A stretch of 64,000 nucleotides of DNA from a virus (IMGVR_UViG_3300050010_000483:1-64000); one strand, 5' to 3'; counted from the stretch's first letter, positions 29,389 through 47,863 are shown. Translations and numbers: made by a program. Notes: generated by a model from the letters alone, not told the origin.

Positions 29389-29393
29389 AAAAC

Positions 29394-29400
29394 GTGTAAT
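29394..29400 (+). promoter_or_regulatory. Putative late promoter GTGTAAT
   Basis: 12 nt upstream of ATG 29413, at the head of the neck operon. Confidence 0.62.
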
Positions 29401-29412
29401 TTAGGTTGTATT

Positions 29413-29742: not shown

Positions 29743-29743
29743 C

Positions 29744-30325: not shown

Positions 30326-30777
30326 TGCAAAATCTTCTTACATCTTCTCAATTGGCAATTTTGAGTGGGGACTTTGATACCGTTTTTACAACCATGTGTC
30401 GTGGTAAAACCGTCACGGTGGTAAAAGAACCGCTTAAAACAACAGTTTCCAGTCCAATCACACAAAATAATGTGTTTGGTTTTGGAGAAATGCAGGCAAA
30501 TTCTGTTTATGACTATACTCCTGTTACTGGTGTTTTTCCAGCTTTTATAATTTATCCCAGAGATTATCAGACATCTTTGAATTCAGAAATTGATATTCGT
30601 GTGGGTTCTGAACCAATAAAAATTAAAGTACAACAGGATTGTCGAGACTTTATTTATAATGGTCGAACATTACATCTGATTGCCGATAATAAAACTTTTT
30701 ATCTGGATGGAGAAGCCAGATTGCAATTATTTTTAAATGGTAATTACTATTTCTTTAATTTAAAGGAAACCAAGTAA
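30325..30777 (+). CDS. Putative head closure/stopper protein
   Basis: 150 aa, beta-rich, TAATG-coupled; inferred from synteny. Confidence 0.5.
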   Translation: MQNLLTSSQLAILSGDFDTVFTTMCRGKTVTVVKEPLKTTVSSPITQNNVFGFGEMQANSVYDYTPVTGVFPAFIIYPRDYQTSLNSEIDIRVGSEPIKIKVQQDCRDFIYNGRTLHLIADNKTFYLDGEARLQLFLNGNYYFFNLKETK

Positions 30778-31394
30778 TGACAACTTTTACCTTTAAAATT
30801 AACAGAGAAAAAATGAAGCTCATTGCTGACAAGGCCATGGGTAAGGCTCCTGCTATTAAACAGGCTGCTGAAAAAGTTTTCTTCGCCGCTTTTCTCAAAG
30901 CTAAAAAGGGAATGTTACAAGCTTTTGATCGTCACCCTGTTACACAGGAACTTTTAAATGGACCAACCGCCGAAAATATTAGTGATACTCTTGGTGGTGG
31001 CTATGGAAATCTTTTTGCATTTATTGGTTTTGATGTTGGTGATACCCCAACGGCCCCATTGAAAGAATTACTGGATGTCGGCACTTCCTATCGTATTTCT
31101 GTTTATAAAAATCGAACTTGGTATTTCAAGGTTAAGTTTCCCAGCAGGGGAAGTATTGAAAAAGCCACGCCCATGCCGTGGGAAGTGGGTAATAGTTGGG
31201 CCGAAGGCATCGAAAAGGGTATTAGTGGTTTGAGTAATTTCATGTATAAACATTGGGAGGGTGGACGCTCTCAAGAGGGTTTTCAATTAAAATATCTAAA
31301 CTTAAGTAATATTGGTTTTAAACCACAACCATATTTATCAGAAATTTTGAACAGTTTTCGTAAAAGCATGAACGACAATAAAGGAATTGCCTAA
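30777..31394 (+). CDS. Putative neck/tail-completion protein (HK97 gp10-like position)
   Basis: Basic protein ending in the FKPQPYLSEIL motif typical of gp10-like proteins; synteny. Confidence 0.5.
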   Translation: MTTFTFKINREKMKLIADKAMGKAPAIKQAAEKVFFAAFLKAKKGMLQAFDRHPVTQELLNGPTAENISDTLGGGYGNLFAFIGFDVGDTPTAPLKELLDVGTSYRISVYKNRTWYFKVKFPSRGSIEKATPMPWEVGNSWAEGIEKGISGLSNFMYKHWEGGRSQEGFQLKYLNLSNIGFKPQPYLSEILNSFRKSMNDNKGIA

Positions 31395-32221
31395 TGTTAC
31401 CAGCCCTGGAAAATAGAATAATGAGCAATTTAATGTTGTTTCTTGACAACCGCCTTCAAAACGTGGGTCAAGGATACAATAATTATAGTAGCTTGTTCTA
31501 TTCGATTCCCAGCAATGTTAATGGATGGTATGCTTATGCCGCACCCTTCAAACAGCTTTGCAATGACACTTCTGTATCTGGCGTAACGGTTATGTCGGGT
31601 GTTTATGTTAATGGGACATACACACCAGTTGGTTCTGGACATTTGGCTGCGATAAATCATTATGATGGAGTTGTGTATTTCAATACTCCGCTGCCAAGTA
31701 CAACCACAATTAGTGGAAATTATGCTATCAAAGAATTCAGCATCGAGATTACAGATCAACAAGAGTGGAAGTTACTTTTTGAAACCAAGTATGTTTCAAA
31801 TAATAGGTTTAATCAAACTTTGAGCGGACTTCCCTTGGATACTAAAACTTCGCCAATCATTTTTTTGATGCTTCAAAATAACGATAGTATTCCTTTTGGA
31901 TTTCATCGTATAAATAACGCCCAGACTTCAATTCGTGCAATTGTAATCGCTGATACAGAATATCAGAGAATCGCTGCTTGTGGCCTTTTACAGACGGTAA
32001 ATCAGTATTATTTGCCCATGGTATCAGGACTGCCATTCGATGTACTTGGGAATATTACAGGAACTAATTATAACTATACGGGTTTGGGGCAAGACCCAAC
32101 CTATTCCCCTTGGATTCAGAAGGCAAAAGGGGTAGATATTAATCAAAAAGGCGATTACCAGAACATTTATAAAAAAATGGGTATGGTTGATTTCGTTATA
32201 AGCACAGTGACCCAGAATTAA
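31394..32221 (+). CDS. Putative tail terminator
   Basis: Directly upstream of the tail tube; synteny. Confidence 0.5.
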   Translation: MLPALENRIMSNLMLFLDNRLQNVGQGYNNYSSLFYSIPSNVNGWYAYAAPFKQLCNDTSVSGVTVMSGVYVNGTYTPVGSGHLAAINHYDGVVYFNTPLPSTTTISGNYAIKEFSIEITDQQEWKLLFETKYVSNNRFNQTLSGLPLDTKTSPIIFLMLQNNDSIPFGFHRINNAQTSIRAIVIADTEYQRIAACGLLQTVNQYYLPMVSGLPFDVLGNITGTNYNYTGLGQDPTYSPWIQKAKGVDINQKGDYQNIYKKMGMVDFVISTVTQN

Positions 32222-32273
32222 CTTCCCAATTAATAAAAATCACTGTAAATAATCAAGAAGGATAATAATCTAT

Positions 32274-33155
32274 ATGCCAATTTCAAGAGCACTTTATGTA
32301 GGTCAACAAGTCGCGATCACCTGTAACAGCGGTCAGAATACCGTTTATTTGCCGATTTCATCCGCTTCTTGCGAAGTAAGTGAACCAGTTGACTCAATCA
32401 GTTCATTCGGTCATTTAATGTCTCTCGCAACCGCGCAGACTAACTTGACCACTTGTAAGTCTACTCTCAAAACATATCTTTTGAGCGGTGCAAATGTCGA
32501 AACGACTGGTAGTGGACCAATCACAACTGGACTTTCTACACAAATTATCCAATGGCTTACGGGCGATGCAATCAACGGAAATTTTACTCAGATTTCTGTT
32601 TCTCCAAATGGTTTTACGATGTCTGGAATTTTAGCTTCTCTTTCTGCTGATATTGCATTGGGTGGGTTTGGTATGAGCGATTTGACTTTTCATGGAGTTG
32701 GGCAACCATTTTTTTCTCCCGCTCCAAGTTCATCAACCTCTGTTGAACAGTCTAACATGCCAACATCCATTACCCCTTTGACAACAATTAGTATTGGTGG
32801 TTCTGTTACTGGGGCTGGTTGTGCTTCTTCATTCAAATTCTCTTTAGACATGCCAACTGATAATTTGGCCTGTTTGGGTTCTGACCCCAACCAAGTTCAA
32901 GGTGCAACTCAAAGTTCATTGATCGCTACAAAGCCTCCTTACAAGGCGACGATTACCGTTGAGGGTTACGGTGTTGACGTTAGCTCTGCTCAGACAATGT
33001 TGAGTGCAGCTATTACTGGTGTGTATAACTTGGGCAGCGTAAACATTCAATTGCCTCACCCACACGTTACTAGCAAGAGCTTTAATAACGCTGTTGGTAC
33101 AGCCGCTGCGAGCTATTCCTACGTTTGTGAGGATACCATAGCGTTCTTCTCTTAA
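32274..33155 (+). CDS. Probable tail tube (major tail) protein
   Basis: S/T-rich beta protein with high-expression codon style; preceded by CTGTAAAT and AAGGA, followed by a terminator; upstream of the chaperones and tape measure. Confidence 0.7.
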   Translation: MPISRALYVGQQVAITCNSGQNTVYLPISSASCEVSEPVDSISSFGHLMSLATAQTNLTTCKSTLKTYLLSGANVETTGSGPITTGLSTQIIQWLTGDAINGNFTQISVSPNGFTMSGILASLSADIALGGFGMSDLTFHGVGQPFFSPAPSSSTSVEQSNMPTSITPLTTISIGGSVTGAGCASSFKFSLDMPTDNLACLGSDPNQVQGATQSSLIATKPPYKATITVEGYGVDVSSAQTMLSAAITGVYNLGSVNIQLPHPHVTSKSFNNAVGTAAASYSYVCEDTIAFFS

Positions 33156-33175
33156 TCAACAACTTACAACAATTT

Positions 33176-33203
33176 AAGCCACCGAATTTTCGGTGGCTTT
33201 TTT
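33176..33203 (+). terminator. Rho-independent terminator
   Basis: AAGCCACCGAA-TT-TTCGGTGGCTT hairpin plus T-run. Confidence 0.88.
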
Positions 33204-33244
33204 GTGTTTATTTTGCACAAAGTGATATTATTCTCTTGAATTTA

Positions 33245-33251
33245 GTGTAAA
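33245..33251 (+). promoter_or_regulatory. Putative late promoter GTGTAAA
   Basis: After the terminator, 5 nt before ATG 33257 (a second in-frame ATG lies at 33269). Confidence 0.55.
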
Positions 33252-33256
33252 AGATA

Positions 33257-33628
33257 ATGGACAAAGGCATGAATTCGCCCGAAAACAATCTCATTACTGT
33301 CTTTACAGCCAAGGAAATCACGTCTCTGTATAAGTTATTCTTGGAGATCATTGAAGACCTTGAGGCAGATAATCGGGCAATGCTTGGTAAAATCGCTGAA
33401 AAGACCTCTCCACAAGTCGCTGCTGACATCAATTACTTCACCCGAGAAAAATACGAACAAATTAGAAAGAGGGTCTTGGATAATGGTAACGAAACCTCTC
33501 GTAAACTTCTTTCATTCTTAGACTTTTTTGAATTTACCATCAATGCTCAAAAAGTTGAAGATGCGGCAAAACTAAAACGGAGTATCGTAAAAAAGATTAT
33601 TATTTCCTCACCCATTTCAGTAGAATAG
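33257..33628 (+). CDS. Hypothetical helical protein
   Basis: Clean ORF between the tail tube and the chaperone-like genes. Confidence 0.7.
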   Translation: MDKGMNSPENNLITVFTAKEITSLYKLFLEIIEDLEADNRAMLGKIAEKTSPQVAADINYFTREKYEQIRKRVLDNGNETSRKLLSFLDFFEFTINAQKVEDAAKLKRSIVKKIIISSPISVE

Positions 33629-33647
33629 TTTGGTTAAAGGCATTATT

Positions 33648-34475
33648 ATGGAAAAGACTCTAAAGTTTTTATATGAAACCTTCGTAAAGAAGCAAGTAAA
33701 CGAATCCGTTACTGAACCTCGTCAGGAAGGCAGTGAAACGGTTCAAATTACCCGAACCGTCAAAAAAGTCAAACCAGTAAAGTTCGCAATTCTCAAACCA
33801 GATCGCCGTCTCTATAAGGATGCTGAAATTTTCTACGCAAGAACACTCGCCGATTATCTCAAAAAGGGCCTCCTGCCTTATTCTCTTGTCGCCAAACGTT
33901 ATTCCAATGATGGTGGCCCCTTAACTGATAGTGAAAAGAAACATATTGACACCCTCACTGATGAATTGGGTAAACTTCAAGTGGAATTTTATGGTCTCGC
34001 TAACACCGAAGACCTGAATCTTCAAAAACGCAAAAATGAAATTTTGATTCGCATTAATCGTATTAACACGGAAGTCAGTAACATTCAAAACGCCTATACT
34101 GATATTTTTGACAGTACCGCGGAAATGAAGGCCCGCAACGATTCGATTGAGTGGTGGGTTATGTATCTGATGTATGGAGAAAATGAAAAGGGGGAATTAG
34201 TTCCCACTTTTAGCGCGGGCGATTATGAAGAGCGCATCAAAACACTTGAAAATATTGAAGATGAAGCGGACCCGTTCAAACTTGAGGCAATTAAAAAACT
34301 ATCTTATTTGATTAGTTTTTGGTTCACTGCCCGTAATGCAATTTCCGACAATGATTTCAAGTCCATGGATCGTTTGTACAGCGACACCATGACAATCTAC
34401 AAAGTTGAGGAAAGCGGTGAATCAGTGAAAGTTGATGAAGTAAGTCCTCCAATCACACAAGTTCCGCCCGTATAA
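33648..34475 (+). CDS. Putative tail assembly chaperone
   Basis: Acidic coiled-coil protein between tube and tape measure; start placed at ATG 33648. Confidence 0.55.
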   Translation: MEKTLKFLYETFVKKQVNESVTEPRQEGSETVQITRTVKKVKPVKFAILKPDRRLYKDAEIFYARTLADYLKKGLLPYSLVAKRYSNDGGPLTDSEKKHIDTLTDELGKLQVEFYGLANTEDLNLQKRKNEILIRINRINTEVSNIQNAYTDIFDSTAEMKARNDSIEWWVMYLMYGENEKGELVPTFSAGDYEERIKTLENIEDEADPFKLEAIKKLSYLISFWFTARNAISDNDFKSMDRLYSDTMTIYKVEESGESVKVDEVSPPITQVPPV

Positions 34476-34476
34476 T

Positions 34477-35355
34477 ATGGCGTCTGATGGTATCTCAAAT
34501 TTTGAAGAACTAAAACTTCTGTATCAAGAAATTGTTGATGGATACTCTCCCTCGGAAAAGGGGGAGTATTTTTTTAAACATTTTTCTGATCTTGATACAA
34601 TAGACATTTTGCGCCATAAACACGCCCTCTACAATGGATATATTCGTAGTGGAATCCCATCACAAAAAGAACGTCTTGCCCAGTTGATTAAACAAGAAGA
34701 ATGGAATCAAAACAAAGAAGATAGAATAACCAGCCTTCGTTTTATTATTGGAGACAATGAAAAAAACATGGAATCTACTATTCCACAAATGCAGGCTGGA
34801 TTGAAAATGGCCCTTGATCGAGACAAGGAAGAATTGGTTTCTTTACTCACGGAGAAATATATGTTATTGGGTACAACTGCTGATGAACTTAGTAATCAAG
34901 AAGTTACTCTATTTCAAATTTTTTATAGTCTTCGTAAAAATAAGGCGGGCGATCCTCTTTATTCTTGGCCAGACTATGAAAGTTTACCTGTCGAAACTCA
35001 AGAAAAATATGCTAAAGAATTTGAGGCAACACTTAGTAGATTTGCTGATAACCGCATTAGAGAGTTAGCAGTAATGCCATTTTTCATAAATTCTTTCTCG
35101 TATTCAAAGGAAAACATCTACTTTTTCTTTGGTAAACCCTTATCTCAACTCACTCAATATCAAAGTTTTCTTCTCTCTCTTGGACAACGTAATCTGAGTA
35201 TTCTTGAACGGGGAGAGGGTAGTCCTCCTGATCTTATTGGTAATATCACTCCCAATGATATTGTCAAATGGTATGATGTGCAGTATTCTGTAATATTAGG
35301 GAGAAGAAATACACAACATATTGATAAATCAAATACCAAAAGAAGGGAAGTTTAA
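34477..35355 (+). CDS. Putative tail assembly chaperone 2
   Basis: Helical; directly upstream of the tape measure; FFGKPLSQLTQYQ segment. Confidence 0.55.
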   Translation: MASDGISNFEELKLLYQEIVDGYSPSEKGEYFFKHFSDLDTIDILRHKHALYNGYIRSGIPSQKERLAQLIKQEEWNQNKEDRITSLRFIIGDNEKNMESTIPQMQAGLKMALDRDKEELVSLLTEKYMLLGTTADELSNQEVTLFQIFYSLRKNKAGDPLYSWPDYESLPVETQEKYAKEFEATLSRFADNRIRELAVMPFFINSFSYSKENIYFFFGKPLSQLTQYQSFLLSLGQRNLSILERGEGSPPDLIGNITPNDIVKWYDVQYSVILGRRNTQHIDKSNTKRREV

Positions 35356-35434: not shown

Positions 35435-38400
35435 ATGTCAGAATATGCCGCAGAAGTAGGAGTTTTATTTAAACCAGATATGTCGCTCGTTGATCGGGCG
35501 GTCATGGAATCTGCATCAAAATGGGGCAGAGCTACAAATGGTCTTGGTAAAAACTTTCCACTTGGAAAACTAACGGGGGACGCAAGCGAATTCCACAAGT
35601 CAATGGATGCCGCTAACGCTCGTGTTTTGGCTTTCGGCGCTTCAATGGGTTCCATCATGGTGGTCAAAAAAGCTTTTGACCTCTTGGTTGATTCTACCAT
35701 CAATGTTGAAAAACAACTCGCAGAAGTAAACTCTCTATTTAATTTGGGACCACAAGGTCTACAAAACTTTTCATCTTCATTATTTAAGATCGCCAATCAA
35801 ATGAGCGTCAGTTTCTCGGACGCCGCCAAAGCCGCAAGTATTTTTGCCCACCACGGTTTGTCAATGGAAGAAACCTTGAAACGTACTTCTGCCGCTCTTG
35901 AACTTTCAAAACTTTCTGGCATGAGCATGGAAGAGTCTGTTCTTTCGTTGACATCCACAATCAACAGCTTTACCAAAGAAGCTTTGGATGCCCAAGACGT
36001 TGTTGATCGTCTTACTGCTGTTGGGGGTAAATATGCCGCCAGTTCTGATGAAATTGCCGAGGCTTTGAAACGTGTCGGTGCATCTGCAAACGACGCGAAT
36101 GTAACTTTCAATCAGACCATTGGTTTGATTACCGCCGCTCAACAGATTACTGCTCGTGGTGGTAGTGTTATTGGCAACTCTTTCAAGAGTATCTTTACTC
36201 GTTTGCAACGTCCTGCTGTTTTGGACGATTTGGCCGCCGCTGGTGTTCAAATCCGCGATCTACAAGGTAAGATTTTGCCAATAGTTTCAATTTTGAAGAA
36301 TTTAGCTGTCTCTTACGACACGCTTTCTTCTTCTCAGAAATCTTTTGTTTCTGAAACCGTTGGTGGCGTCTATCAAGTGAACGTCCTCAAAGCTTCTTTA
36401 AGCGACATAAAGGGTGGAGCTAGTATTTTTGAAGGAGCGATGGATACAGCAGCCAACTCGGCTGGTGTTGCTCAAAAACGTATTGCTATTTTGAATGAAA
36501 CTTTAGCGAGTTCAATGGTTCGTACTCAAAACGAAATGACTCGTTTGGCTGCAAACACTGGTAATATTTCTCTTACCCCAGGTTTAAAAAGCGGTGTTGG
36601 TGGTTTGAAATCTGGTGTTTCATGGATGGCTGATATGATGGACTCCAATAAAGCATCAAGTGGCAGCACTGGTCAACAAATAGGGGCAAATTTATTTCAA
36701 GGCATTGCTCGTGGTATTGGTAACGTACTTGCGGGTCCAGGTATCCAGTTCATTACAACTGTTTTTGCAAAATTAATGACCCGTCTGGCTAAATTCATTA
36801 GTGATTCTTCCAAAGACCTGCTTGGTGTTAATTCCAAGGAACAAGAACGAGAAGCCATTAATGCGAACATCGCAAAGTGGCTTGGAAATCAAGAAGGCAT
36901 TTTGGAAAAAATTGCCAGCGGTGAAATGACAATTGTTGAGGCTACTCAGCTTCGACAAAAACATCTTGAAATCATCCTAAGAACCTATCAGGACATTGCT
37001 ACGATTTCTGGGGCAATAACTCCAGGCAATAACCCAACAATTAGTATGGGTGGGGAAGGACACGCCTCTGGATTTATTCCAGATGTTCGTGGTGAGGTAG
37101 CCGCCGCAAGCCAAGGTGGATATGCGGCTGGTAGAGTTGTCGGTACTACTATTCGTAATGGTAGTAGTTCGTTTAACTCAACAGTAAATACTGCTGAAAC
37201 AAAGTCTACTATTAATGTGGGTGGTACTGGTAGAATGGCTGATTTTATTAATCCGCCACTAAACAGTCAGGCGGGCCAACAACATCGTGCGAAAGCCATT
37301 AAGGTTTTGGGTGTAGACCCTTACTCTTTACCACAACGTTCAGTTAATGCTGAAGGTTTTATTCCTTCTAAACCATTTGCAATGTGGGAGATTAACAGCG
37401 GTAATCTTCTTGGAAAATATAAAACTAGGACTGGTGCTATGAAGGCAGCAGATCGTTATAAAAATTATGACGGTGATTCTTATACTTATGGCAATGTAGT
37501 AGGAACATTTTCTTCTGGAAGAATTGAAGATTATCAAGCATTCATTAAATATAGAAACTCAATTCCTAGTCCATTTGCTTTGGGTCCATTAAATTCTGCT
37601 AGTGGGTATGTTCCTAATTTATCTTTGGATGATATGCAGGCCAGACTCAAGGCCATCGGTATCAATGACTGGCGATCTCTGAAACGTCCTTTTGCAACGC
37701 AGTATAATAAAGCCGCCAACAAAGACTATCCAACTGTGCCAGATTTTGATCTGTCAATGTTACCAGAGAGTTATTTGGGTGCCGTTACAAAACATTTCAC
37801 AAACCATGATGACGTGGCAGCTTTATTACGTTTTGCTCAGACGCAAATCTTTAAAAAGAAACTTATCATTCAGACGAGTAGCGGACAAAAGCGTCTGCCT
37901 TCATCTATTGGTGCTGATGCACTAAAATCTACTTTCTGGAACAATGCTGAGATAGCTGATACTAATGACGGTCTTTGGGGGGCCTTGCGTGGAAGTCTGG
38001 CCAACTCTGATACTGCAAATGTATTACCATTTTTACGCAAAGGTACAGGAATTCACAAAGACAATCTTGCTAGTTTTATTAGTTCTATTCTTGGACAAGG
38101 TTTTGAATCTCCAAATACAGATGAAGGTGAAGATGTTAACATGGATGTTGCGACGGCCCAACGTCTCTTGAGTCGTTATTCAGGAACATTTCCAACAGTG
38201 GTTGGTTATGATTCTATTAATAATCTTTCCCCAGCGGGTGATTTGCCAGACTTTGTAGGTAAACTAAAAATTGGTAATACAAAATTTGATATAAACACTC
38301 CAATTTTTGGACACAAGACTTTCGTACAAAGGAACTTGGCGGAGGCTAAAAACATTGCATCTTTGATCGGTGGGGGTGATTTTGACAATGATACTTTAGC

Positions 38401-41400
38401 AACAGTCTTAGGTAAGATGTTTGACAAACGCAGCAAGAAGGAAGCGGAAAGTGCTGGAATATTCATGGGTTCTGCAAATGCAGCAATTGATATTCCCGCT
38501 CCACTAAAGTCTATTTTGTCTCAAACCAACATTACTGGTGATGTTTCTGGCATTGAGCTAAAGAGTAGTCTTGAAGAAGCCAAAAGACATGCAGCCAGCA
38601 AAATTTTCCGTAGTTTAATCGGTGGTACAGAAGACAGTAATTGGTCTGGACCTATTGAGGCTCCATATCGTCTAGCTGGTGTTCCAAAATTTGGTACTGG
38701 TAAAACTGGTATTTTGGATTATAATCAGTTTGGTTCGTCAAGCAAAAATGAAATGTTGTTGGCTGCTGTTCAAGCGGCTTCTCAAGGAAAAGCCATTAAA
38801 ATTATTCATGGGGCGGGTACGTATGCCACACAACATGCCGCAGACGTTTCCGAAGGTATTGCTCGTGGAAAAAATTACATAAAGTCGGCTGATGATCTTT
38901 CTCAATACGATCAAATCGTAATGAATAGCTTTATTAGAAAATCCAGTGGTTTGACCAAGGGATATTCTGGTCTTTTGTATTCATTAGCTTCAAATGTACA
39001 GGGTTTGGGTCTTCCAGAAAGTTTGAATGAAAAACAACTTGGTGAATATCAATCTTTAAGGACGTTGATGAGACAACGTTTGGGAGACAGATATTCTGGT
39101 GCGGCTGGGGGTTTTGTACCTGATGGTAATCTATCAGACATGTTGAAAAATATCTTCCATCCATTACATGAATTTCAGGCTTATAAAGAAGTTTCAAGAC
39201 AGGCTCTTGATTTTGTAAACAATAATGGTTCGATTACCACTAAATTACCATCTGGGTTTGATCGTGAATTTTTGGCATCAGCTTTAGCCAACAAGACTGT
39301 CGGAAAACCATACGAGGCTGATTTGGCGAGTCTGCAAAAAGTTGGAGTTTCTTCAAGTTATTTTGATGTTGTTCATGACATGTTCGGCCAAAAAGTCAAC
39401 TATAAAGAGTTAATGTCTCGTGTTAAATCTGGTGAATATGCCAGTGGTTATATTCCTGCTGTTCTTTCTGCTTTAAAAGCAGAAGACAAAGCAACAGGGG
39501 GAAACGCCATATTATCAGCGAGTTATAAATTGGCTAGTAGTTCAAACCCTCTGGGTTTTGCGGCTATTGACAGTCGTTCTCAACGTAATGCTGATGAAGC
39601 AATTAGACAACATCAATCTTTGGGTCAGAGTTTGGCTTCGATTAAATCTGTGCCTCATTTGGCTCTTGATGATGGTTCAACTGGTTTTGCTGGATCAAGT
39701 ATTTTCAACTCTATAGCCTTGGCCGTCGGGTCTTTTGCAAATAGTAATCGCACAGAATATCATTCTCTTGGTGATATTATCAAGAGCGTTTTTGGTGGTT
39801 TGCCATCAAATCTCAAGACCGTTGTAAATCCATCTTTTGAAGAAGTAGCCAAGAAAGTTTCGTTACTGGATTCGACAATCAAAACAGCACAATCTGAGGT
39901 TCTATCTCCAAAACAGAAGACTACTTTTCAAGGGCAAGAATATAACAATTATAACGCCCTGACGGAGGTTTATAATACTCAACGCAGAGGATTGACTACT
40001 CCTGATTACGAGGCTTATCAAAAAAATAAAGATGATTCTCGTTCAAGCCTCCAGGCCTTGGGTTGGAGACGCTCGATTTTGTCCAGTATGGCTGGTGGAG
40101 TTCTTACTCAAGGGGTTGATAGATTCTCTCCAAATGCTGGGGCTGCTGTTCAAGAATTTACTTCTGGTTTGACTCAATCGTATCAAGTTTTAGCTGCATT
40201 CCCTAATGAATTTGGTAAAGCTTTGCGCATGGGTGTGCTGGCTGGTTCGGCATTGAGTGCCATTGATTTGTTTGGTAAAGGTCTCGCCACACAACAGAGG
40301 GCTTTTAATGAATCTCAAACCAAGTATCAAAACTTGGCAGTTCAGATTGATGGACTTTCTAACGTTTTGAATAATTTTGACCAACTGTTGAATGATTCAT
40401 CTGTGAGTTTTGAGACTTTAACCCGCGAGAGTCGCAAATATACAGAATTGCTTGGTCAAATGTCTCAGACACCAGAAGGTTCTTTCGCTGCTGAAAAAGT
40501 CATGAGTGCGGGAAGTAATACTGCGGCTATCGCTGCTTTGCAAGAATACAAGGCTGGTAAATCCCGTGATCTTGATAGACAGGCGGCTTTATTGGGTCTA
40601 AAAGAATATGGAGACAAACGTACATTTGGCGTCGGAAACTATAAGATTGGTAATCCAATGGGATTTTCCAACGACATAGAAAAAACCGAATTAACTCAAA
40701 AAATTAGTGATGCGGCCAAAACTGGTATTGAAGCTCTCAGTGAAAAAGAAAAAGCTAATCTTGTTAGTTCAACTTCTCAGGGATTTGGTAACTTTTCTAC
40801 ACAACTTGGCAACGTGGGACCAGTCGCCTCTAAGTTCATGTCATCAATGAACCCAGGTACTCGGACTGCCGTTTCCCAAGAAATGTTCAATCAACTACTC
40901 ACAGAGAATGTTGTCCAACAGGCTCCAGTTCAAGAAAAACTCAAGGATTTGCGTGATCGCAATGCAATTCGTCAATTGAATTTGGATTCCGTTCGACGCC
41001 GTGCTGCATCAGAAAAACGTCTATTCATTGACCAAGGTTCCATGATTGCAGGAAATGAACTCGACTTGCGTGGAATTCAGTCTCGTGGCACCTACAATAC
41101 TGCTGAGATTACTTATGGCGTTGGTCAGGCTATGAATCAGTACTATTCTTTAAATACAGGAGAACGAACGATGGCTCAACGTCAGGCCATCATGGATACA
41201 ACCCGCCTGCAAGCAGAGGGTCAATTCAAATCACAAAGTATCAAGGCACAAGCCACAAGAACTGTCGCTTCTGGTTTGACTCAAAACTTTGAAGAATATT
41301 TGGGTCATACTGATTTAACTAAACTTTTACAAGCTCCAGGTCAAGCTCCTATTGGTGATATTGAACAATTCAAAGCAAACTTAATTGATGCCACCAACAA

Positions 41401-44400
41401 AGGTATTGCATCCACGGTTAAGAGTGGAAATTTCGATCAATTCAACAATAATGGTGTTTTTGATATTGAAGCGATGAAGAAAGCTATTGCTGCAAATGGA
41501 GTCAACGGTAGTACACCAGAGGGACAAAAAATGCAGAAAGCTATTTCTGACTTTCTAAGTAATAAAGACACTGAGGAAATTCTCAAGGCGATGCAAACGG
41601 CATCACTTGACCTGGTAAATTTGGGACAAGATCAAAAACTCGAACTGGAAAAGATTCAGTCCAATACATTTGCGACAACAAAAGTTTTCGATTTCAAACA
41701 ACTTAGTTCTTTTCTTGGTGGTACAAAAAACTTGACAGATCGAAGCTTCCGCCGTGAAGAAGAAAGAAAAGTTGAGCGTGGTGCTTTCTTGTTAAATCAT
41801 GGAAGAACCGCAGAAGCTCGCGGACAAGGTGGTCATGACGTTCTTGAATTCTTTAAAGACAACAATGTTCCGATAGACTTAAAGGGCAACTCTTCCACGT
41901 CTAAGTTGATGCAACAAGCATGGAATGCCGCCCAAACAGGTCTTTCAACGACGTTATCACAATCAATCGGAAGAATCACTGATAGTGATAATCGCCTGAA
42001 TGGCGGACAATCGAACTTTGGTTCAATTTTTGGAAGTTATGATGTAAATGCCGCTGCCAATGCAGGTTTGTCTGCTGAGTTCAAACCTGAAAATCCCGCC
42101 ATTACTAGTGGAACTGCCGCCACAGTACCAAACGCCATGAAAACGTTTGATGATAATTTAGACAGTTCGATTCAATCAATTAAGAATTTTGGAGAGTCTT
42201 TAAATCAGACTGCCGCCAATTTCCTACAGGCTCAACAAGATATTAAAAAGGCCGCAGAAGAAATAGATACCGTTACTAAAACAGACACAAATAATTTCCA
42301 AACATTCATAAATAATTGGACAGCTAATAATCAGTCTCAATCATTACAAACAAATCTTTCTCAAGAAAAGAAAGGGATTAACTGGGGTGGACTTGGAAGT
42401 GCTGCTATTACCACAGTAGCTACTGCCATTCTTTGGACTCTTTCGAGTCGTATTTCGAGTGGTTTCTTGGGTGGAATCTCAGCAAAAATGGGAATTGGTG
42501 GCTCGAAGAAAGTCGAAGAAGATATTGCTAAAATAGCTACGACTGTTGAAAGCAAAGGTTCATCAGTTATTCGTGAAAGTTCTGATTTAATTAAAAATGG
42601 AATTCCAAGTTCTTGGAAAAAAGAACAAGAAAATCCATTGATACAAAAACCCGTCGCTTCTATGGCTCCTGTAGCTAATCAAAAAATAGGTCCATTAAAT
42701 GCAAACAAAACAACCACTGGGGCATCAGATGCTTCAAAGGTAAATGAAATTTTGTCTGCTAATCATTCTGAAACTATTGGACTTGTTGGTAAACAAGAAA
42801 TACTTCACAATGATTTGGTATCTTCTTATTCCAAAATCGAAAAGTTCCGTGAAGAAACTTTAAAAAAAGCCTCTCAACAAATAAAATTGGGACGATATAC
42901 AGGTATTGCATCTATTGATTCTAAGATTCAAGCACATGAATTTGGTAATATTAACAAACAAGAAATTTATCAACTACTTGACAAGACAATAAAAACTTCT
43001 GAACTTCCAGGAGGAAAAAAACTATTAAAAACTCATTCGGACATACAAAAACAATTTAACGAAAATCAAGGAAGACAAAGAATTTTACGAGAGAGAAATG
43101 CCACTATTCAACAACAAGCAGCTAAAACATCTTTGAAAAATACCATTAAAGATACATTTAATCCTGGAGTTTCTTCGGGTGTAGATCATGGTCCTTTCCA
43201 CCCAAACGATTTCATGGGAACTTCTGATATTAACACGAAATATACAGAAGAACAACTGGCTGAGTTTGCACCATCAGCAAAACCTAGATATTTATCTCGT
43301 ATTGGAACATCTGTAAGTAATTTTGTTGGTTTTAAACCATATCCTGGAAAATGGTGGAAAACTTCTTGGAAACCTTCTGGAAAATCAACTCTTTTTGGCA
43401 ATCCTTTTAGTGTCGCTGGTTTTAATGCAGCCTCTAAATTGGGTAAAAGTGTAAAAATTGGTGGAGCAGGATTGGGAATTTTGGGCGCGGCTTTATCAGC
43501 TAAAGAAGCTTATAATGATTTTAGTACAGCACATGACACAGCAGATTACACTCGCGCTGGCGGTCACTTGGCTTTAAATGCCCTTTCATTTGCTGGTCCA
43601 GTAGGATTAGCGGCCTCGTTAGGAGTAAGAGCGTTAGATAATACTATGCATGAACGTTGGGATTCTCAGCAAGATGTTGCAGATGCAGAAAATAGAGGAA
43701 AACAAATTGATATGAGAATACGTTTGTTACCTCGTGAATTAGCTCAACGCAAGCGCAAAAAAGCTTTAGCTGTACAAGCTGGCATTCAAGAACAAAATGA
43801 ACAACAAGATGCGATTACTGCTCAAGCTGAAATGAACCCTGCTTATGCTCAGGGTGCGGCCAATCTTGGTTTGGGTCATCTCCAAAATGATCTTGGCCAC
43901 GCAAGGGGACGCAATGGTATTGACTTCACAAAACTCTCTCCTGAGAGTATGAAAAACCTTGACATGATCTGGCACTCAGAGCATCCTGATAAAATGATTA
44001 ACGGTAAGTATGTTCGTTCTATGCCAACAGCCGCTACAGGAGGATATTCAGATTTGGCTAACAGTTTGTTTGATGGTACAGACAACAACAAACATCGTCA
44101 AGCTTTAACGACAGCTTATGGTCGTTCCCTTCCAACATTATTAGATGGTGGTTATGGAACATCTAATTATGATCGTACTAAAAATAGAGTTACTCAAGAC
44201 AATGTTCAATCATCTGTGGAAAATAAAGCCCTGCAAAATATAATGATGGAACAAAGACAATTAAAAGAAGATTCGGCGCAAAATAAAGTAAACAATTCTA
44301 ATAATACTCCAGATAATACCCAAGAGCGTTTGATTTCCGTTTTGGATAAACTTGCTAATGCTGCTAATGGTTCCAACAGTACACCAGCTAAAGTTGATTC

Positions 44401-44557
44401 TAATATTACAGTACAAATTTCTTTGGCTGATGCCGATAAGATTCCTGATACATTGATGAAGCAATTAATTGCTCCTTTACAGAAACAATTGTCTGATTTG
44501 CAAAATCAAACTAACATACTAAGCAACAGATTCGCTCCTAAACCAGCGAAGGTATAA
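35435..44557 (+). CDS. Tail tape measure protein (3040 aa) with inserted cassettes
   Basis: The N-terminal core (VEKQLAEVNS, DAAKAA..FA..G, LTAVGGKYAASSDEIAEAL.RVGASA, GSVIGNSFKSIFTRL) is typical of TP901-type tape measures; A/S/G-rich helical body. Confidence 0.92.
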   Translation: MSEYAAEVGVLFKPDMSLVDRAVMESASKWGRATNGLGKNFPLGKLTGDASEFHKSMDAANARVLAFGASMGSIMVVKKAFDLLVDSTINVEKQLAEVNSLFNLGPQGLQNFSSSLFKIANQMSVSFSDAAKAASIFAHHGLSMEETLKRTSAALELSKLSGMSMEESVLSLTSTINSFTKEALDAQDVVDRLTAVGGKYAASSDEIAEALKRVGASANDANVTFNQTIGLITAAQQITARGGSVIGNSFKSIFTRLQRPAVLDDLAAAGVQIRDLQGKILPIVSILKNLAVSYDTLSSSQKSFVSETVGGVYQVNVLKASLSDIKGGASIFEGAMDTAANSAGVAQKRIAILNETLASSMVRTQNEMTRLAANTGNISLTPGLKSGVGGLKSGVSWMADMMDSNKASSGSTGQQIGANLFQGIARGIGNVLAGPGIQFITTVFAKLMTRLAKFISDSSKDLLGVNSKEQEREAINANIAKWLGNQEGILEKIASGEMTIVEATQLRQKHLEIILRTYQDIATISGAITPGNNPTISMGGEGHASGFIPDVRGEVAAASQGGYAAGRVVGTTIRNGSSSFNSTVNTAETKSTINVGGTGRMADFINPPLNSQAGQQHRAKAIKVLGVDPYSLPQRSVNAEGFIPSKPFAMWEINSGNLLGKYKTRTGAMKAADRYKNYDGDSYTYGNVVGTFSSGRIEDYQAFIKYRNSIPSPFALGPLNSASGYVPNLSLDDMQARLKAIGINDWRSLKRPFATQYNKAANKDYPTVPDFDLSMLPESYLGAVTKHFTNHDDVAALLRFAQTQIFKKKLIIQTSSGQKRLPSSIGADALKSTFWNNAEIADTNDGLWGALRGSLANSDTANVLPFLRKGTGIHKDNLASFISSILGQGFESPNTDEGEDVNMDVATAQRLLSRYSGTFPTVVGYDSINNLSPAGDLPDFVGKLKIGNTKFDINTPIFGHKTFVQRNLAEAKNIASLIGGGDFDNDTLATVLGKMFDKRSKKEAESAGIFMGSANAAIDIPAPLKSILSQTNITGDVSGIELKSSLEEAKRHAASKIFRSLIGGTEDSNWSGPIEAPYRLAGVPKFGTGKTGILDYNQFGSSSKNEMLLAAVQAASQGKAIKIIHGAGTYATQHAADVSEGIARGKNYIKSADDLSQYDQIVMNSFIRKSSGLTKGYSGLLYSLASNVQGLGLPESLNEKQLGEYQSLRTLMRQRLGDRYSGAAGGFVPDGNLSDMLKNIFHPLHEFQAYKEVSRQALDFVNNNGSITTKLPSGFDREFLASALANKTVGKPYEADLASLQKVGVSSSYFDVVHDMFGQKVNYKELMSRVKSGEYASGYIPAVLSALKAEDKATGGNAILSASYKLASSSNPLGFAAIDSRSQRNADEAIRQHQSLGQSLASIKSVPHLALDDGSTGFAGSSIFNSIALAVGSFANSNRTEYHSLGDIIKSVFGGLPSNLKTVVNPSFEEVAKKVSLLDSTIKTAQSEVLSPKQKTTFQGQEYNNYNALTEVYNTQRRGLTTPDYEAYQKNKDDSRSSLQALGWRRSILSSMAGGVLTQGVDRFSPNAGAAVQEFTSGLTQSYQVLAAFPNEFGKALRMGVLAGSALSAIDLFGKGLATQQRAFNESQTKYQNLAVQIDGLSNVLNNFDQLLNDSSVSFETLTRESRKYTELLGQMSQTPEGSFAAEKVMSAGSNTAAIAALQEYKAGKSRDLDRQAALLGLKEYGDKRTFGVGNYKIGNPMGFSNDIEKTELTQKISDAAKTGIEALSEKEKANLVSSTSQGFGNFSTQLGNVGPVASKFMSSMNPGTRTAVSQEMFNQLLTENVVQQAPVQEKLKDLRDRNAIRQLNLDSVRRRAASEKRLFIDQGSMIAGNELDLRGIQSRGTYNTAEITYGVGQAMNQYYSLNTGERTMAQRQAIMDTTRLQAEGQFKSQSIKAQATRTVASGLTQNFEEYLGHTDLTKLLQAPGQAPIGDIEQFKANLIDATNKGIASTVKSGNFDQFNNNGVFDIEAMKKAIAANGVNGSTPEGQKMQKAISDFLSNKDTEEILKAMQTASLDLVNLGQDQKLELEKIQSNTFATTKVFDFKQLSSFLGGTKNLTDRSFRREEERKVERGAFLLNHGRTAEARGQGGHDVLEFFKDNNVPIDLKGNSSTSKLMQQAWNAAQTGLSTTLSQSIGRITDSDNRLNGGQSNFGSIFGSYDVNAAANAGLSAEFKPENPAITSGTAATVPNAMKTFDDNLDSSIQSIKNFGESLNQTAANFLQAQQDIKKAAEEIDTVTKTDTNNFQTFINNWTANNQSQSLQTNLSQEKKGINWGGLGSAAITTVATAILWTLSSRISSGFLGGISAKMGIGGSKKVEEDIAKIATTVESKGSSVIRESSDLIKNGIPSSWKKEQENPLIQKPVASMAPVANQKIGPLNANKTTTGASDASKVNEILSANHSETIGLVGKQEILHNDLVSSYSKIEKFREETLKKASQQIKLGRYTGIASIDSKIQAHEFGNINKQEIYQLLDKTIKTSELPGGKKLLKTHSDIQKQFNENQGRQRILRERNATIQQQAAKTSLKNTIKDTFNPGVSSGVDHGPFHPNDFMGTSDINTKYTEEQLAEFAPSAKPRYLSRIGTSVSNFVGFKPYPGKWWKTSWKPSGKSTLFGNPFSVAGFNAASKLGKSVKIGGAGLGILGAALSAKEAYNDFSTAHDTADYTRAGGHLALNALSFAGPVGLAASLGVRALDNTMHERWDSQQDVADAENRGKQIDMRIRLLPRELAQRKRKKALAVQAGIQEQNEQQDAITAQAEMNPAYAQGAANLGLGHLQNDLGHARGRNGIDFTKLSPESMKNLDMIWHSEHPDKMINGKYVRSMPTAATGGYSDLANSLFDGTDNNKHRQALTTAYGRSLPTLLDGGYGTSNYDRTKNRVTQDNVQSSVENKALQNIMMEQRQLKEDSAQNKVNNSNNTPDNTQERLISVLDKLANAANGSNSTPAKVDSNITVQISLADADKIPDTLMKQLIAPLQKQLSDLQNQTNILSNRFAPKPAKV

Positions 44558-44559: not shown

Positions 44560-46245
44560 ATGGCCGCTTTTGTTCAACAAGGATTAAACACTGGATTAAT
44601 TGGTTACACACTTCGGAATGAGTTCCTTGGTGAGACGATCTATTACCGTCAAAACCAAATTTTTGATTATGAAATCTACTCTGTTGATAATGTAACCCTA
44701 AGTCCAAATACAATTCAACAGAATTTACTTTCGGCTTTTTCCATTTACTCTGGAAATATTCAGGTTAAGGTTTTTGAGGCCCCCGTCACATATCAGTTCC
44801 CAAATGATGGTATTCGGGCCGCAAAATTCCATGCACGAGTTGAAGTAAAAACTTACGACCCATCAATTACGACTGTTCAGACGGAATTGAACAATACGTA
44901 CTATACGGGGCTGGGCAATTCATTTTGGAGTGGTTTTGGTCCTCAACTAATTGATTTTAAAGAAGAATTCGCTTTTGCAAAACAAGAAGACGGCACGAAC
45001 TCTTACAATCATAGCCTGTCTTTTTCTTTGTTGACAGGAACAAAAGCCGAGGCTGTTTCTCTTGCCTCTGGATTATTTGTCAATGACCCATATACCACAT
45101 TTGGTATTATCGCCAATTCTGGTGGAGCATATATTGCCAATAGCAATAATTACATTGACTATTATCAAGAAAGTTACGATCTAATTCGTCAGAGTTATCG
45201 TTTTAACAAACGTCGTGATGTTTTTCCAACAACTGGTTATAGTGGTTTCTACAACTTCAATCATACCATGGAAATGAAAGAAAACGGTATTGTTGAAGTC
45301 TCTGAACATGGTGCTGTACAAGCCGCATTATCATTCAATCAAGTCTATGCCACAACTGAAGCATTAGTGGGTGGTTCATATTCTCGTTTGAATCCTTTTT
45401 ATCTTACTTATAGTCCTTTGGCTTCTCCGACAAATACGGCTGGATATGGACTTGTAGTAGAGCCAATGAAAATTGTCAAAAATTACAATCAACAAAAATT
45501 CACATCAGAATATGATGTTACCTATACAAATGACCCCGAATATGCCGTCAACGGTGCCAGAAGCGTATCTACGATTGAATTTGATGTAGACCCCATGGGG
45601 ACTACAACAATCAAACATAATTTCGATTTCATGGGTAACAGACGTTTGAGCAATTTGGACTTTTTTTCATTGATTAGTAGTGCCACGGGCTCATCCCCAG
45701 GATTGGTGAGTAATTATTATGCTTCTCAAGGATACGACTATAATTCCAGTCTTCCGATCAACCTGATACGTTCCAATGCCACATGGCCAAACCGTGATAA
45801 TAAAGCCTCAGTCTCAATGGAATATTCATCACATCCAAAGTTTTTTAGAACAGTGAATGGCATTACATTCAATTATCTTGATAGTACAATCGAAAATATG
45901 GTGCCTTCTGACATCATGCAAGAATACAAGATTATCAATCGCCCATCAAAGACAAGTGTATTAAACTATGCTTATCAAACAGACAAAGGACAGATCGTTA
46001 TGAAACTCGAAGGTGGTATTGGTCGAAATCCCAATGAGTTTACGACAGGATTCAGAAATGGATTTGGTGGTTATTTAACGGCCCTATACAAGTATGGTAT
46101 TGGTCTTTTTGCGCAGCAATTTATGACAAATATTCCAACAGCTTTCACATACTATCTTTCTGACATAAAATACTCTTTAAATCAGGATGGAATTCTTACG
46201 ATGACACTGACGTTTACGTATACCATGAAGAAATACGAGTTGTAA
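44560..46245 (+). CDS. Tail tip/distal tail protein
   Basis: Beta-rich; immediately after the tape measure; shares an E(F/Y).F...EDG....H..S/G pattern with the next gene. Confidence 0.6.
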   Translation: MAAFVQQGLNTGLIGYTLRNEFLGETIYYRQNQIFDYEIYSVDNVTLSPNTIQQNLLSAFSIYSGNIQVKVFEAPVTYQFPNDGIRAAKFHARVEVKTYDPSITTVQTELNNTYYTGLGNSFWSGFGPQLIDFKEEFAFAKQEDGTNSYNHSLSFSLLTGTKAEAVSLASGLFVNDPYTTFGIIANSGGAYIANSNNYIDYYQESYDLIRQSYRFNKRRDVFPTTGYSGFYNFNHTMEMKENGIVEVSEHGAVQAALSFNQVYATTEALVGGSYSRLNPFYLTYSPLASPTNTAGYGLVVEPMKIVKNYNQQKFTSEYDVTYTNDPEYAVNGARSVSTIEFDVDPMGTTTIKHNFDFMGNRRLSNLDFFSLISSATGSSPGLVSNYYASQGYDYNSSLPINLIRSNATWPNRDNKASVSMEYSSHPKFFRTVNGITFNYLDSTIENMVPSDIMQEYKIINRPSKTSVLNYAYQTDKGQIVMKLEGGIGRNPNEFTTGFRNGFGGYLTALYKYGIGLFAQQFMTNIPTAFTYYLSDIKYSLNQDGILTMTLTFTYTMKKYEL

Positions 46246-46246
46246 T

Positions 46247-47863
46247 ATGTTTGATATTTTAGTTCAATATAATGGAAATACAATTTATCCAACACCATTG
46301 GTTCAACAGAACTATCGGTTCTTAGATTGTGGGCAACGCTGGGGTAATGTTCTTGAAATTGAACTTCAAGGATATGTCACTGGATTAACATCAACAGGTA
46401 GTATAACTGGTCTGATTAACATTTTTACTGGACAATTTGGAACATTGAATGTTTATCAAACATCTGAGAGTTCGCAGCAACAAATTTACTCTTGGAATAA
46501 TCTAAACATCGAAAGTATCGAATTTCCAAATAACAGTTATTTAGTAAACTCTTTTGTTCCTTATCATATTAAAATGCACCAATATAATGTTCCTAGTGGT
46601 GTATTGGACCCTGTCAATGAGTATTCTTTTAATCAAGGCGAGGATGGCACTGTCACTTTAACTCATAAAATGGGTGCCCGTGGTGTTAAGAACAACATTG
46701 ATGCTTTCGACAATGCCATTGCCTTCATCAAATCAATTTCTGGACGAAACGCCTTTCAAACAGCTTTTATTCCAAGTGGAGTTGGAGCTTTGATGTCTCT
46801 TTCTGAAAATATTAATCGTGCCGAAGGAGCATATTACCTTACAGAAACTTATAAATATACAACGGGCATTAATCAACCTTATTGCACCTGGTTTAATGCA
46901 TCTGTCACAAATAGTCTTGATAATGAATATCTTTTGGTAAATTCCGAGTTAAAAATTCAAGGTTCTCCCGTCCAAAATAATTTATCTCAGATTGAGGCGC
47001 AAATTCCCGCTGGTCTTGATAGTTCGCTAAGTCTATTAAATCAGATGGGAATTAATACTGGACTGCTTTTGACTAATTCTATGTCGGTCGTAAGAGATTC
47101 TGGTTCTGCAACGATTACTATCAAACGAGACTTTATTTCTGGCTATTATGCTTCGGATTTTAACGGATTTTTTGACTATGTAATTTCAATTGATGAAGAT
47201 TGGGTTTTGCCAAAAGAAACATGGAAAGTTGAAGGAGAATTTATTTGCAAAGGTCCATTGGACTATAAAAAACAACAATTGGCTGTATTCAAAAATACAA
47301 TGGGAAACGTCCCAAATTATTTAATGGGATTGATTAGCGGTTCTGAAATTTTTTCAGAGTGGCATAATGATAACAATCTTCCCTCTTCCCTTTATGAACT
47401 ATCGGTGAAAGAGAATACGGGCATTGCAACCTGGCAAGCTTCTTTAACCATGTATGACGGGACATATCCAAGTGGAATTGTAATGCCAAAATATGCTGTT
47501 GATGTGTCTCCATCAAAATGGGCCTTTGATTTACTCCCATCGGCAAATATTGAAGGCCATTATGTAGTCCAAGATTTACAAATGGCCACTCAAGCCCATC
47601 TATCCTTTAACGTTTCATGTGATTCTGATGTTCCTTGGATTGCTGCACCATTAATTTCGGGATACCTTGTTCAATTAGAGGAAATTTATATCAACAGCGG
47701 AGCCATTACAAGTCAAACATTATCCACGGGGCTGGTATCGGCATCAAACACCAGAGAGTGGATTGGCACGGATAATTTGAGTACTGGAATTTTGAACACA
47801 AAAGTTGTTGGTTCTTATGTTTCCAATTATCTTCGTCAACCTGGATATAGCTTTGGATATTAA
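46247..47863 (+). CDS. Tail tip/distal tail protein
   Basis: Beta-rich, TAATATG-coupled; synteny. Confidence 0.6.
   Translation: MFDILVQYNGNTIYPTPLVQQNYRFLDCGQRWGNVLEIELQGYVTGLTSTGSITGLINIFTGQFGTLNVYQTSESSQQQIYSWNNLNIESIEFPNNSYLVNSFVPYHIKMHQYNVPSGVLDPVNEYSFNQGEDGTVTLTHKMGARGVKNNIDAFDNAIAFIKSISGRNAFQTAFIPSGVGALMSLSENINRAEGAYYLTETYKYTTGINQPYCTWFNASVTNSLDNEYLLVNSELKIQGSPVQNNLSQIEAQIPAGLDSSLSLLNQMGINTGLLLTNSMSVVRDSGSATITIKRDFISGYYASDFNGFFDYVISIDEDWVLPKETWKVEGEFICKGPLDYKKQQLAVFKNTMGNVPNYLMGLISGSEIFSEWHNDNNLPSSLYELSVKENTGIATWQASLTMYDGTYPSGIVMPKYAVDVSPSKWAFDLLPSANIEGHYVVQDLQMATQAHLSFNVSCDSDVPWIAAPLISGYLVQLEEIYINSGAITSQTLSTGLVSASNTREWIGTDNLSTGILNTKVVGSYVSNYLRQPGYSFGY

Follow-up and report, generated by a model that had tools for sequence, protein, structure and literature searches.

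A phage tape measure gene with an internal array of modules bounded by a recurring nine-residue peptide

The tape measure gene and its motif copies

The DNA analysed here is a 64,000-nucleotide stretch of a virus record (IMGVR_UViG_3300050010_000483:1-64000; G+C content about 39%), referred to as the window. Its plus strand carries a single open reading frame (ORF) of 3040 amino acids (aa) at 35435-44557, the product of which is labelled P0001 and contains an internal array of segments bounded by a short recurring peptide. The gene is the longest in a co-oriented block of structural-size ORFs. A Pfam search of P0001 gave PF10145 (PhageMin_Tail) at aa 120-307 with an E value of 4.5e-30 and 105.5 bits against a cut-off of 33.2, and 11 PHROG tape measure families matched within aa 20-658. 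The product is predicted to be a tape measure protein (TMP) of the TP901 type, and the naming of this gene as a tape measure in a first-pass annotation, which had been made from the DNA sequence alone, was borne out by both searches.

The same annotation had reported a peptide A-x-G-[FY]-[IV]-P recurring within the gene. All five copies were recovered in the frame of the one ORF, at aa 544, 639, 722, 1224 and 1336, with spacings of 95, 83, 502 and 112 aa. When P0001 was shuffled 20,000 times, A.G[FY][IV]P was found on average 0.005 times and never more than once per shuffle, while the looser pattern G[FY][IV]P was found 0.05 times on average and at most twice. These shuffles ruled out that the motif is an artefact of chance or composition. 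In a six-frame translation of the window the looser pattern occurred at the five TMP sites and at one minus-strand site (47469), with no others.

The order of the segments along P0001 is as follows, the family names m1, m2 and so on being those of a clustering of related TMPs and the motif scores those of a position-specific scoring matrix (PSSM) for the family motif. The conserved N block (m1; aa 1-543, 35435-37063) includes the PhageMin_Tail domain at 35792-36355. It is followed by motif 1 (ASGFIP, aa 544, 37064-37081), which is continued by D and not by the Asn usual in the family, scores 6.9 and lies in a linker predicted with low confidence. The m2 module (aa 550-638, 37082-37348), a small predicted alpha/beta domain, extends to motif 2 (AEGFIP, aa 639, 37349-37366, next residue S), where the block common to relatives ends. 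An 83-aa segment unique to P0001 (37367-37597), a singleton in the clustering and without a Pfam match, separates it from motif 3 (ASGYVPNLS, aa 722, 37598-37624). This copy is the only one in the window that fits the full family consensus and has the best score in P0001 (24.2). The m5 module (37625-39103; the 502-aa segment when counted from motif 3, aa 722-1223) consists of a helical N-terminal part and a predicted alpha/beta region at aa 901-1220 (38135-39094). Motif 4 (AGGFVP, aa 1224, 39104-39121, next residue D) scores 11.7 and precedes the m18 module (39122-39439; the 112-aa segment when counted from motif 4), which is predicted with low confidence to be helical, has no Pfam match and belongs to a family of four (P0001, P0005, P0006 and P0013). 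The C-terminal region common to relatives starts at motif 5 (ASGYIP, aa 1336, 39440-39457, next residue A). It opens with a small conserved domain that aligns with family m3 (aa 1342-1401, 39458-39637), and after a degenerate sixth motif (SIKSVPHLA, aa 1402-1410, 39638-39664) the C block occupies aa 1411-3040 (39665-44557), with one hydrophobic stretch at aa 2712-2731. The sixth copy was recognised from its alignment, column for column, with the G-x-[IV]-P-N-L-A of the last motif of relatives, in which P1407 and L1409 are nearly invariant. The interval of the first-pass annotation had ended at about 39670 because this degenerate copy stands there.

The ORFs around the TMP gene gave little annotation. 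None of the 10 adjoining ORFs had a PHROG match, and of 10 more distant ORFs of the block two matched PHROGs, both of unknown function. A Pfam search of 10 block ORFs returned a single weak match below the cut-off, to BppL_N in ORF 26694-29321. The virion module as a whole (20 structural-size ORFs, 17346-35355 and 44560-55098) is unusually distant from anything described.

Relatives and the order of modules

A profile-free scan of 1.8 billion protein representatives with aa 521-1440 of P0001 returned 43 proteins at E <= 0.001, most of them 2000-4200 aa long. With the alignment of these 43 proteins as the query, 599 stretches were matched in IMG/VR and 569 of them were confirmed by tblastn; 80 loci were kept from the confirmed stretches for further analysis. 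Another 28 loci were confirmed in species genomes, nearly all of them aquatic metagenome-assembled genomes binned as Flavobacteriales, Proteobacteria, Marinimicrobia, Halobacteriovorax and others. Judged by these matches, P0001 belongs to a large TMP family of uncultured aquatic phages. Proteins of at least 1000 aa and the longest ORF of each locus were combined into a set of 111 non-identical TMPs after one identical duplicate had been removed, and proteins shorter than 1000 aa from the scan were excluded from all module counts.

Cultured phages contributed only distant matches. Megablast of the TMP gene against INPHARED gave no match, and tblastn of the TMP against cultured phages gave 243 records; among the matches listed (the best 30 of the 243), coverage was limited to aa 53-381 with 24.8-27.5% identity, that is, to the PhageMin_Tail region. 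Exact peptide patterns from the middle region of P0001 had no match in IMG/VR, and a search for cultured relatives with the middle region of L006, a TMP with the commonest array, was likewise without a match. In Lactococcus phage 949 and Bacillus phage PJN02, two characterised phages with giant TMPs (3276 and 3080 aa, respectively), the TMP contains no copy of the motif. In both of these phages the gene directly upstream of the TMP gene is annotated as a site-specific recombinase or integrase (L109, 6086-7078, and L110, 6125-7111, respectively), an unusual location for a gene of this kind.

The PSSM was built from strict matches in these same family proteins, and copies were called at a score of at least 15.3, which is above every one of 60 shuffled proteins scanned. 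At this threshold the 111 TMPs contain 467 copies with the consensus [SA]-x-G-F-[IV]-P-N-[FL]-A. The Gly and the Pro are present in all 467, I or V in 462 and the Asn in 446, and the residues outside these nine positions are not conserved. At a laxer threshold the number of copies per TMP ranges from 0 to 11, with a mode of 4 (51 of the 111 TMPs). For the module analysis the five positions in P0001 were set by hand, as only two of them pass a PSSM threshold of 8.

When the 80 loci were scanned with up to 10 kb of flanking DNA per side, 362 hits fell inside the TMP ORF and five outside the ORF assumed; four of these five lie in the true TMP of L055 and the fifth is a lone minus-strand hit. The peptide is thus specific to the TMP. 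A processing signal common to other virion proteins was ruled out, as the motif is absent from the other reading frames of the window and, apart from the lone minus-strand hit, from the flanks of the loci. That the motif is the core of a diverged domain repeat was ruled out by the unconserved flanks and by an hhalign comparison of m2 with m3, which aligned in 11 columns only, namely the motif itself.

The near-constant Asn after the Pro is the feature expected if the motif were an Asn-dependent self-cleavage site, at which the chain would break after P-N via a succinimide. The C-terminal Asn of inteins and the N↓PTH site of FlhB/YscU are precedents for such a reaction. However, the Asn is replaced in all window copies except motif 3, and in many relatives S, D, E, A or T occupies this position of the first motif. 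The motif is moreover located in unstructured linkers beside unrelated modules, and no common catalytic fold is present. Self-cleavage is therefore considered very improbable.

The motif coincides with changes in homology between relatives. In BLASTP comparisons with 31 relatives, aa ~42-644 of P0001 were 43-53% identical, and in 20 of them the high-scoring segment pair (HSP) of the N block ended where motif 2 ends (aa 644-650). Shared homology resumed with motif 5 (aa 1330-1342) in 17 of the 31. From there to about aa 2280 identity was 25-38%, and the last 50-140 aa were likewise conserved. In relatives the two shared blocks are separated by as little as about 14 aa (P0034) and by as much as about 1930 aa (P0009). 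In the whole set, 51% of 14,853 internal HSP ends were situated within 5 aa of a motif, compared with 6% of random positions in the same spans, although HSPs tend to end at the motif because of its own conservation, and the pairs are not independent. Pairs of more than 80% identity, HSPs shorter than 80 aa and, in the first test, ends at most 200 aa from a terminus were omitted from this count. The motif marks the places where homology between relatives breaks.

Cutting the TMPs at their motifs gave 614 pieces, and clustering of these revealed a common plan, m1, m2, 0-8 variable modules, m3 and the C block. Of the 111 TMPs, 105 have the N block m1 (about 540 aa), 80 have m2 (about 65-98 aa) and 79 have m3 (about 63-99 aa). 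The variable modules comprise 236 internal pieces with a median length of 242 aa, which fall into 30 families and 69 singletons. It had been proposed that the motif would persist in an alignment of related tape measures while the segments between its copies vary in identity and number, and this is what the family exhibits. The window has the order m1, m2 (95 aa), the unique 83-aa piece, m5 (502 aa), m18 (112 aa), the m3-like module and the C block. Families m4, m8, m11 and m5 have a common core of about 75 aa (hhalign probabilities 91-97%), and this superfamily, to which the first variable module usually belongs, is found in 78 of the 111 TMPs. In P0032 (1818 aa) and P0034 (2089 aa) the N block passes almost directly to an m3-type module, with degenerate motif remnants and no variable module. 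As the module count varies from 0 to 8 and these two proteins are without an array, the array is dispensable for making a tail, at least in some lineages.

Three pairs of close relatives differ by exactly one module and one motif: L003 and L002 (90% identity), L068 and L039 (78%), and L013 and L025 (83%). In each pair the shorter protein has one motif where the longer has two, with the left flank of the first copy and the right flank of the second, and the flanking copies in L068 and in L013 have 17 identical bases. Tandem modules of the same family were found in six TMPs. Whole modules have been gained or lost with the junction inside the motif codons, and the junctions and the tandem modules are the expected trace of a putative unequal crossover or slippage between motif copies.

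These junctions, with their 17-base identities, and the tandem modules are also an argument for considering the motif as a recombination site conserved mainly at the DNA level, a short homology for module shuffling whose peptide has no function. In its favour is a slight excess of shared codons between the motif copies of one gene (2780 of 4721 same-residue positions, with 2364 expected from codon usage). However, 41% of the same-residue positions differ synonymously while the Gly and the Pro are invariant and the Asn nearly so, and selection therefore acts mainly on the peptide. The five window copies also differ in their codons for Gly, Pro and Ala, and no clear module swap between distant backbones was seen. 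A motif kept mainly for its DNA is thus quite unlikely; the identity of the DNA is better regarded as a probable by-product that recombination can use. The recombination anchor of the first-pass annotation was supported to this extent, by the three junctions in relatives, but not by any recent exchange over a larger distance.

Predicted folds and enzyme domains of the modules

An AlphaFold2 (AF2) model of P0001 aa 521-1440 was calculated from a 32-row alignment and had a mean predicted local distance difference test score (pLDDT) of 70. The m2 module (aa 551-640) was predicted as a confident alpha/beta domain with means of 83-96 for blocks of 10 residues, and the m3-type module (aa 1343-1410) as a confident small domain with values of 77-93. 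Within m5, aa 730-860 formed helices of moderate confidence, and most 10-residue blocks of aa 901-1220 reached 85-98, with dips to about 60-75 near aa 1090-1150. The statement that the segments between the motifs are globular was therefore correct for these three regions but was not supported for the 83-aa segment, with block means of 29-53, and the 112-aa segment. A second model was made for the m2-m4-m3 part of L006 from 39 rows (mean pLDDT 62). The motifs were in low-confidence linkers in both models, with a pLDDT below 50 between the folded parts in L006.

The comparison of the folded segments with known structures, proposed in the first-pass annotation, was uninformative: Foldseek of the P0001 model against PDB and BFVD gave no match at E <= 0.001. 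The best VIA rows, both for aa ~1084-1232, were weak and of Rossmann or P-loop type, namely MurC (1j6u_A; Z 5.7, root-mean-square deviation [rmsd] 3.5, 104 aligned residues) and zeta toxin (6epg_B; Z 5.7, rmsd 5.4, 132 aligned residues), followed by many GTPases and P-loop kinases at Z 4-5. For the L006 model the best Foldseek E value was 1.6 and VIA gave Z 4.1 at most, such whole-model searches being barely a test of the small m2 and m3 domains. In the m5 family a string G....GK[TSLM] is present in 18 of the 22 members. At the aligned Walker A column the string is missing from P0001, P0004, P0013 and the truncated P0010, and the site in P0001 reads HGAGTYAT (aa 1125-1132, 38807-38830). The m5 module of the window looks like an inactivated P-loop domain that has probably lost its nucleotide site and been kept in the array. 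It also lacks a segment of about 20 aa further on that is present in most m5 relatives.

The core common to m4, m8, m11 and m5 has the pattern FE ... FD ... D[FA]K in m4 and m8 and FE ... FD ... YK in m11, and the corresponding sites in P0001 are FD ... IDI ... ELK. A guess from this pattern is a possible PD-(D/E)xK nuclease; the fold searches of the P0001 and L006 models gave no nuclease match. An A4 profile compared with PDB sequences yielded three rows at chance level only (E 0.76-3.1), and no stand-alone homologues of m5 were found among shorter proteins.

Enzyme domains above the Pfam cut-offs were found in the modules of three relatives. ART-PolyVal was matched at aa 370-519 of P0035 (32.1 bits, cut-off 31.2), PcfJ at aa ~1925-2028 of the L067 TMP (28.7 bits, cut-off 25) and SNase at aa ~669-763 of the L073 TMP (23.1 bits, cut-off 21), each inside one motif-bounded module. 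A weaker match was to GNAT in L034. A conserved HExxH string is present in m16 (5/5 members) and m35 (2/2), while the same scan of P0001 gave no match. The 576-aa m16 module (L029:6047-7774; also in L030, L032, L043 and P0012) begins with a region resembling the GHKL ATPase HATPase_c_3 (24.2 bits, cut-off 25), and near its end has a conserved HE..H..NR.EGEAHA; a weak match to gp67 of phage G1, in the C-terminal domain of that protein, overlaps this string. The module may be a zinc peptidase or may bind a sigma factor. Two tandem m35 modules, both with LHEIGHS, occupy aa 1043-1402 of P0035, the same TMP that contains the ART-PolyVal module, and one of them had a weak Reprolysin_3 match (E 0.0026) below the cut-off. 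They are candidates for a built-in processing peptidase in this one relative. A role of the HExxH modules as processing protease was not confirmed, as Pfam gave only the weak Reprolysin_3 match and no MPTase match for m16.

The models and the module counts also bear on a structural explanation, in which the motif would be a joint that docks the TMP during tail assembly to the tail assembly chaperone, to the inner wall of the tail tube or to the other chains of a TMP oligomer, and the modules would be assembly or ruler elements of one uncut chain without cargo. Confinement of the motif to the TMP is expected of a TMP-specific assembly contact, and its position in low-pLDDT linkers resembles that of peptides which fold on binding. 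The near-universal presence of m2, m3 and one core module type points in the same direction, as does the lack of an enzyme family match for most modules. In the window, moreover, G-[FY]-[IV]-P is retained although most copies have lost the Asn, a loss that a hydrophobic docking core could tolerate. Against a joint in an uncut chain stand the variation from 0 to 8 modules and the absence of the array from P0032 and P0034, the ART-PolyVal, PcfJ and SNase modules, which have no obvious assembly role, and the failure to identify a docking partner. This explanation is regarded as unlikely.

Proposed delivery of modules and comparison with known systems

On balance we consider it probable, with limited confidence, that the motif-fenced TMP is a polyvalent chassis that brings ready-made proteins into the host, the peptide most likely being a site where the chain is cut or docked. 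Accessory modules would have been inserted between the conserved N and C blocks, each fenced by the nine-residue peptide in a flexible linker. They would travel with the TMP, which, as is known for TMPs, would exit the tail ahead of the DNA. In this way the modules, in part enzymes, would reach the envelope or the cytoplasm of the host with the TMP. With less confidence, we suggest that the peptide has a job of its own at the protein level, most likely that the chain is cut or docked there and the modules are thereby released or threaded.

Several points weigh against this delivery of modules. The lumen of a tail tube offers little room for folded domains of 200-600 aa. Whole P0001 had no conflict-type Pfam family at E <= 0.1, its separate modules had none at E <= 1, and they gave no match to any Pfam family at E < 0.1, no match to PDB sequences and no usable cluster match in the ESM Atlas. 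Nothing exceeded Z 5.7 in the fold searches, and the 83-aa (639-721) and 112-aa (1224-1335) segments were modelled with low confidence (block means 29-59). Conflict-type domains above the Pfam cut-off were found in only 3 of 14 module-rich TMPs, and for P0009 and P0011, with 11 and 8 motifs, Pfam gave PF10145 only. The near-universal m4/m8/m11/m5 module type may be structural and not cargo. Among the motifs of P0001 only two of five score at least 8, the lowest two being at -1.6 and -2.7, and the family Asn is kept in one, with D, S, D and A in the other four.

The evolutionary data belong to the same side. No recent module swap between distant backbones was seen, and module identity averaged 15-30 points less than that of the N block. 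The largest excess of a module over N-block identity was +12 points in pairs of less than 70% N-block identity and +18 to +23 over all pairs, only HSPs covering at least 60% of the shorter segment being used in this comparison. Because module identity is low and distant swaps are lacking, most of the data are explained by vertical descent accompanied by rapid divergence, duplication and loss. The swappable effector cargo proposed in the first-pass annotation was supported by the ART-PolyVal, PcfJ and SNase modules of relatives but not by the window, where the modules match no effector family, nor by the module type found in most TMPs. The window array, in which the motifs are weak, no enzyme can be recognised and the P-loop-like module has lost Walker A, is a weak, degenerate and partly decayed member of the family. 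The observation of the earlier annotation was real, and its interpretation is partly supported.

The closest likeness is to the polyvalent proteins, which have been proposed to enter the host at invasion and then to be processed into units by zincin peptidases, a zincin MPTase being present in about 36% of the set (Iyer, Burroughs, Anand, de Souza, Aravind 2017, PMC5512222). Both groups string many unrelated domains together in one giant phage polypeptide, with fast mosaic evolution described for the polyvalent proteins (PMC5512222, article text), and ART-PolyVal, PcfJ-like and nuclease domains occur in both, here in relatives only, the first two being hallmarks of the polyvalent proteins. Between the conserved blocks of P0001 there are five motif-bounded segments, three of which fold confidently, in the range of 2-15 globular domains of polyvalent-type proteins. 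In contrast to the polyvalent proteins, the chassis here is a TMP, whereas tape measures have 0 mentions in the article text of PMC5512222, and that text was not seen to describe a fencing peptide like the nine-residue one found here. A zincin MPTase was not found in the window, and relatives have at most the HExxH strings of m16 and m35. On these domain arrangements, the P0001 family can be classed as putative polyvalent proteins whose chassis is a tape measure and whose modules are fenced by a conserved peptide. No description of a motif-fenced TMP array was found in the literature; the supplementary tables of the polyvalent-protein paper, which were outside the scope of the search, could hold TMP fusions. 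A full-text search for spellings of the motif, with supplementary files outside its scope, gave no phage paper, the sole match being a human serum peptide.

Cutting of TMPs has precedents in gpH of phage lambda (cut to gpH* and gpHC) and pb2 of T5, which are ejected ahead of the DNA and cut during maturation in a glycine-rich region (PMC12617516, in the parts that treat these proteins). The same parts of that source state that for the lambda TMP neither the cut site nor the catalyst is known. These TMPs have a single cut near the C terminus, whereas the array described here is internal. In lambda gpH (L111) no G-F-[IV]-P-N was found, and the best PSSM score was 0.0. Its glycine-rich region contains FATGGF (aa 733-738) and YATGGY (aa 778-783), 45 aa apart and probably close to the point where the C-terminal piece (about 14 kDa) begins; they resemble A-x-G-[FY] only loosely.

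T5 pb2 and the TMP of mycobacteriophage TM4 are examples of rulers with an embedded enzyme domain. They share with the present family a ruler with a functional domain, which in their case is carried into the cell envelope, but in enzyme-bearing TMPs of this kind the wall-degrading domains number one or two and are not known to be bounded by a repeated motif. Peptidoglycan hydrolases have been described in the TMPs of several phages (PMC12617516, same parts). The TMP-related effectors of the Sle1 type in actinobacterial contractile injection systems are modular, are packaged in a tail-like tube and have an exchangeable functional domain that differs between relatives (PMC13277306, abstract). 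In contrast to the present array, Sle1 has one variable domain per protein and belongs to a bacterial injection system and not to a phage, and no repeated fencing motif is reported in the abstract (PMC13277306).

Short peptides at the border of constant and variable parts also have parallels in bacterial toxins, for which the present array was compared with two types. In polymorphic toxins the VENN peptide of CdiA and PxxxxDPxGL of Rhs stand at the constant/variable border and coincide with recombination junctions. MARTX toxins contain several effector domains, which are released by cuts in the linkers through a built-in cysteine protease. Unlike these toxins, in which CdiA and Rhs have a C-terminal cassette, the array in P0001 and its relatives is internal, has many units and is part of a virion protein, and no protease was identified for it. 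In a stronger form of the delivery proposal, the tail would carry a multi-effector delivery system, a phage counterpart of the MARTX arrays, with the peptide as its dedicated signal for processing or translocation. After exit of the TMP, each motif would be a point at which the chain is cut or handed over, and a single structural gene would supply a series of separate proteins open to reprogramming by evolution. The payload would consist of ADP-ribosyltransferases, nucleases, kinase-like modules and many unknowns, and the motif codons would double as crossover points at which it is rewired. We put this forward tentatively and regard it as doubtful.

If the modules are not delivered, the TMP is still an unusual ruler protein, which tolerates 0-8 inserted domains. 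The motif is a concrete candidate site for studying how and where TMPs are cut, a question that is open even for lambda (PMC12617516, as above). One peptide fencing each module amounts to a simple grammar, by which dozens of module families can easily be found as candidates for host-takeover or counter-defence proteins. If the modules are delivered, early-acting proteins would have a plug-in slot in a core structural gene of a widespread group of aquatic phages, to which at least 569 IMG/VR contigs belong, and the array would be a natural design for loading proteins into phage tails.

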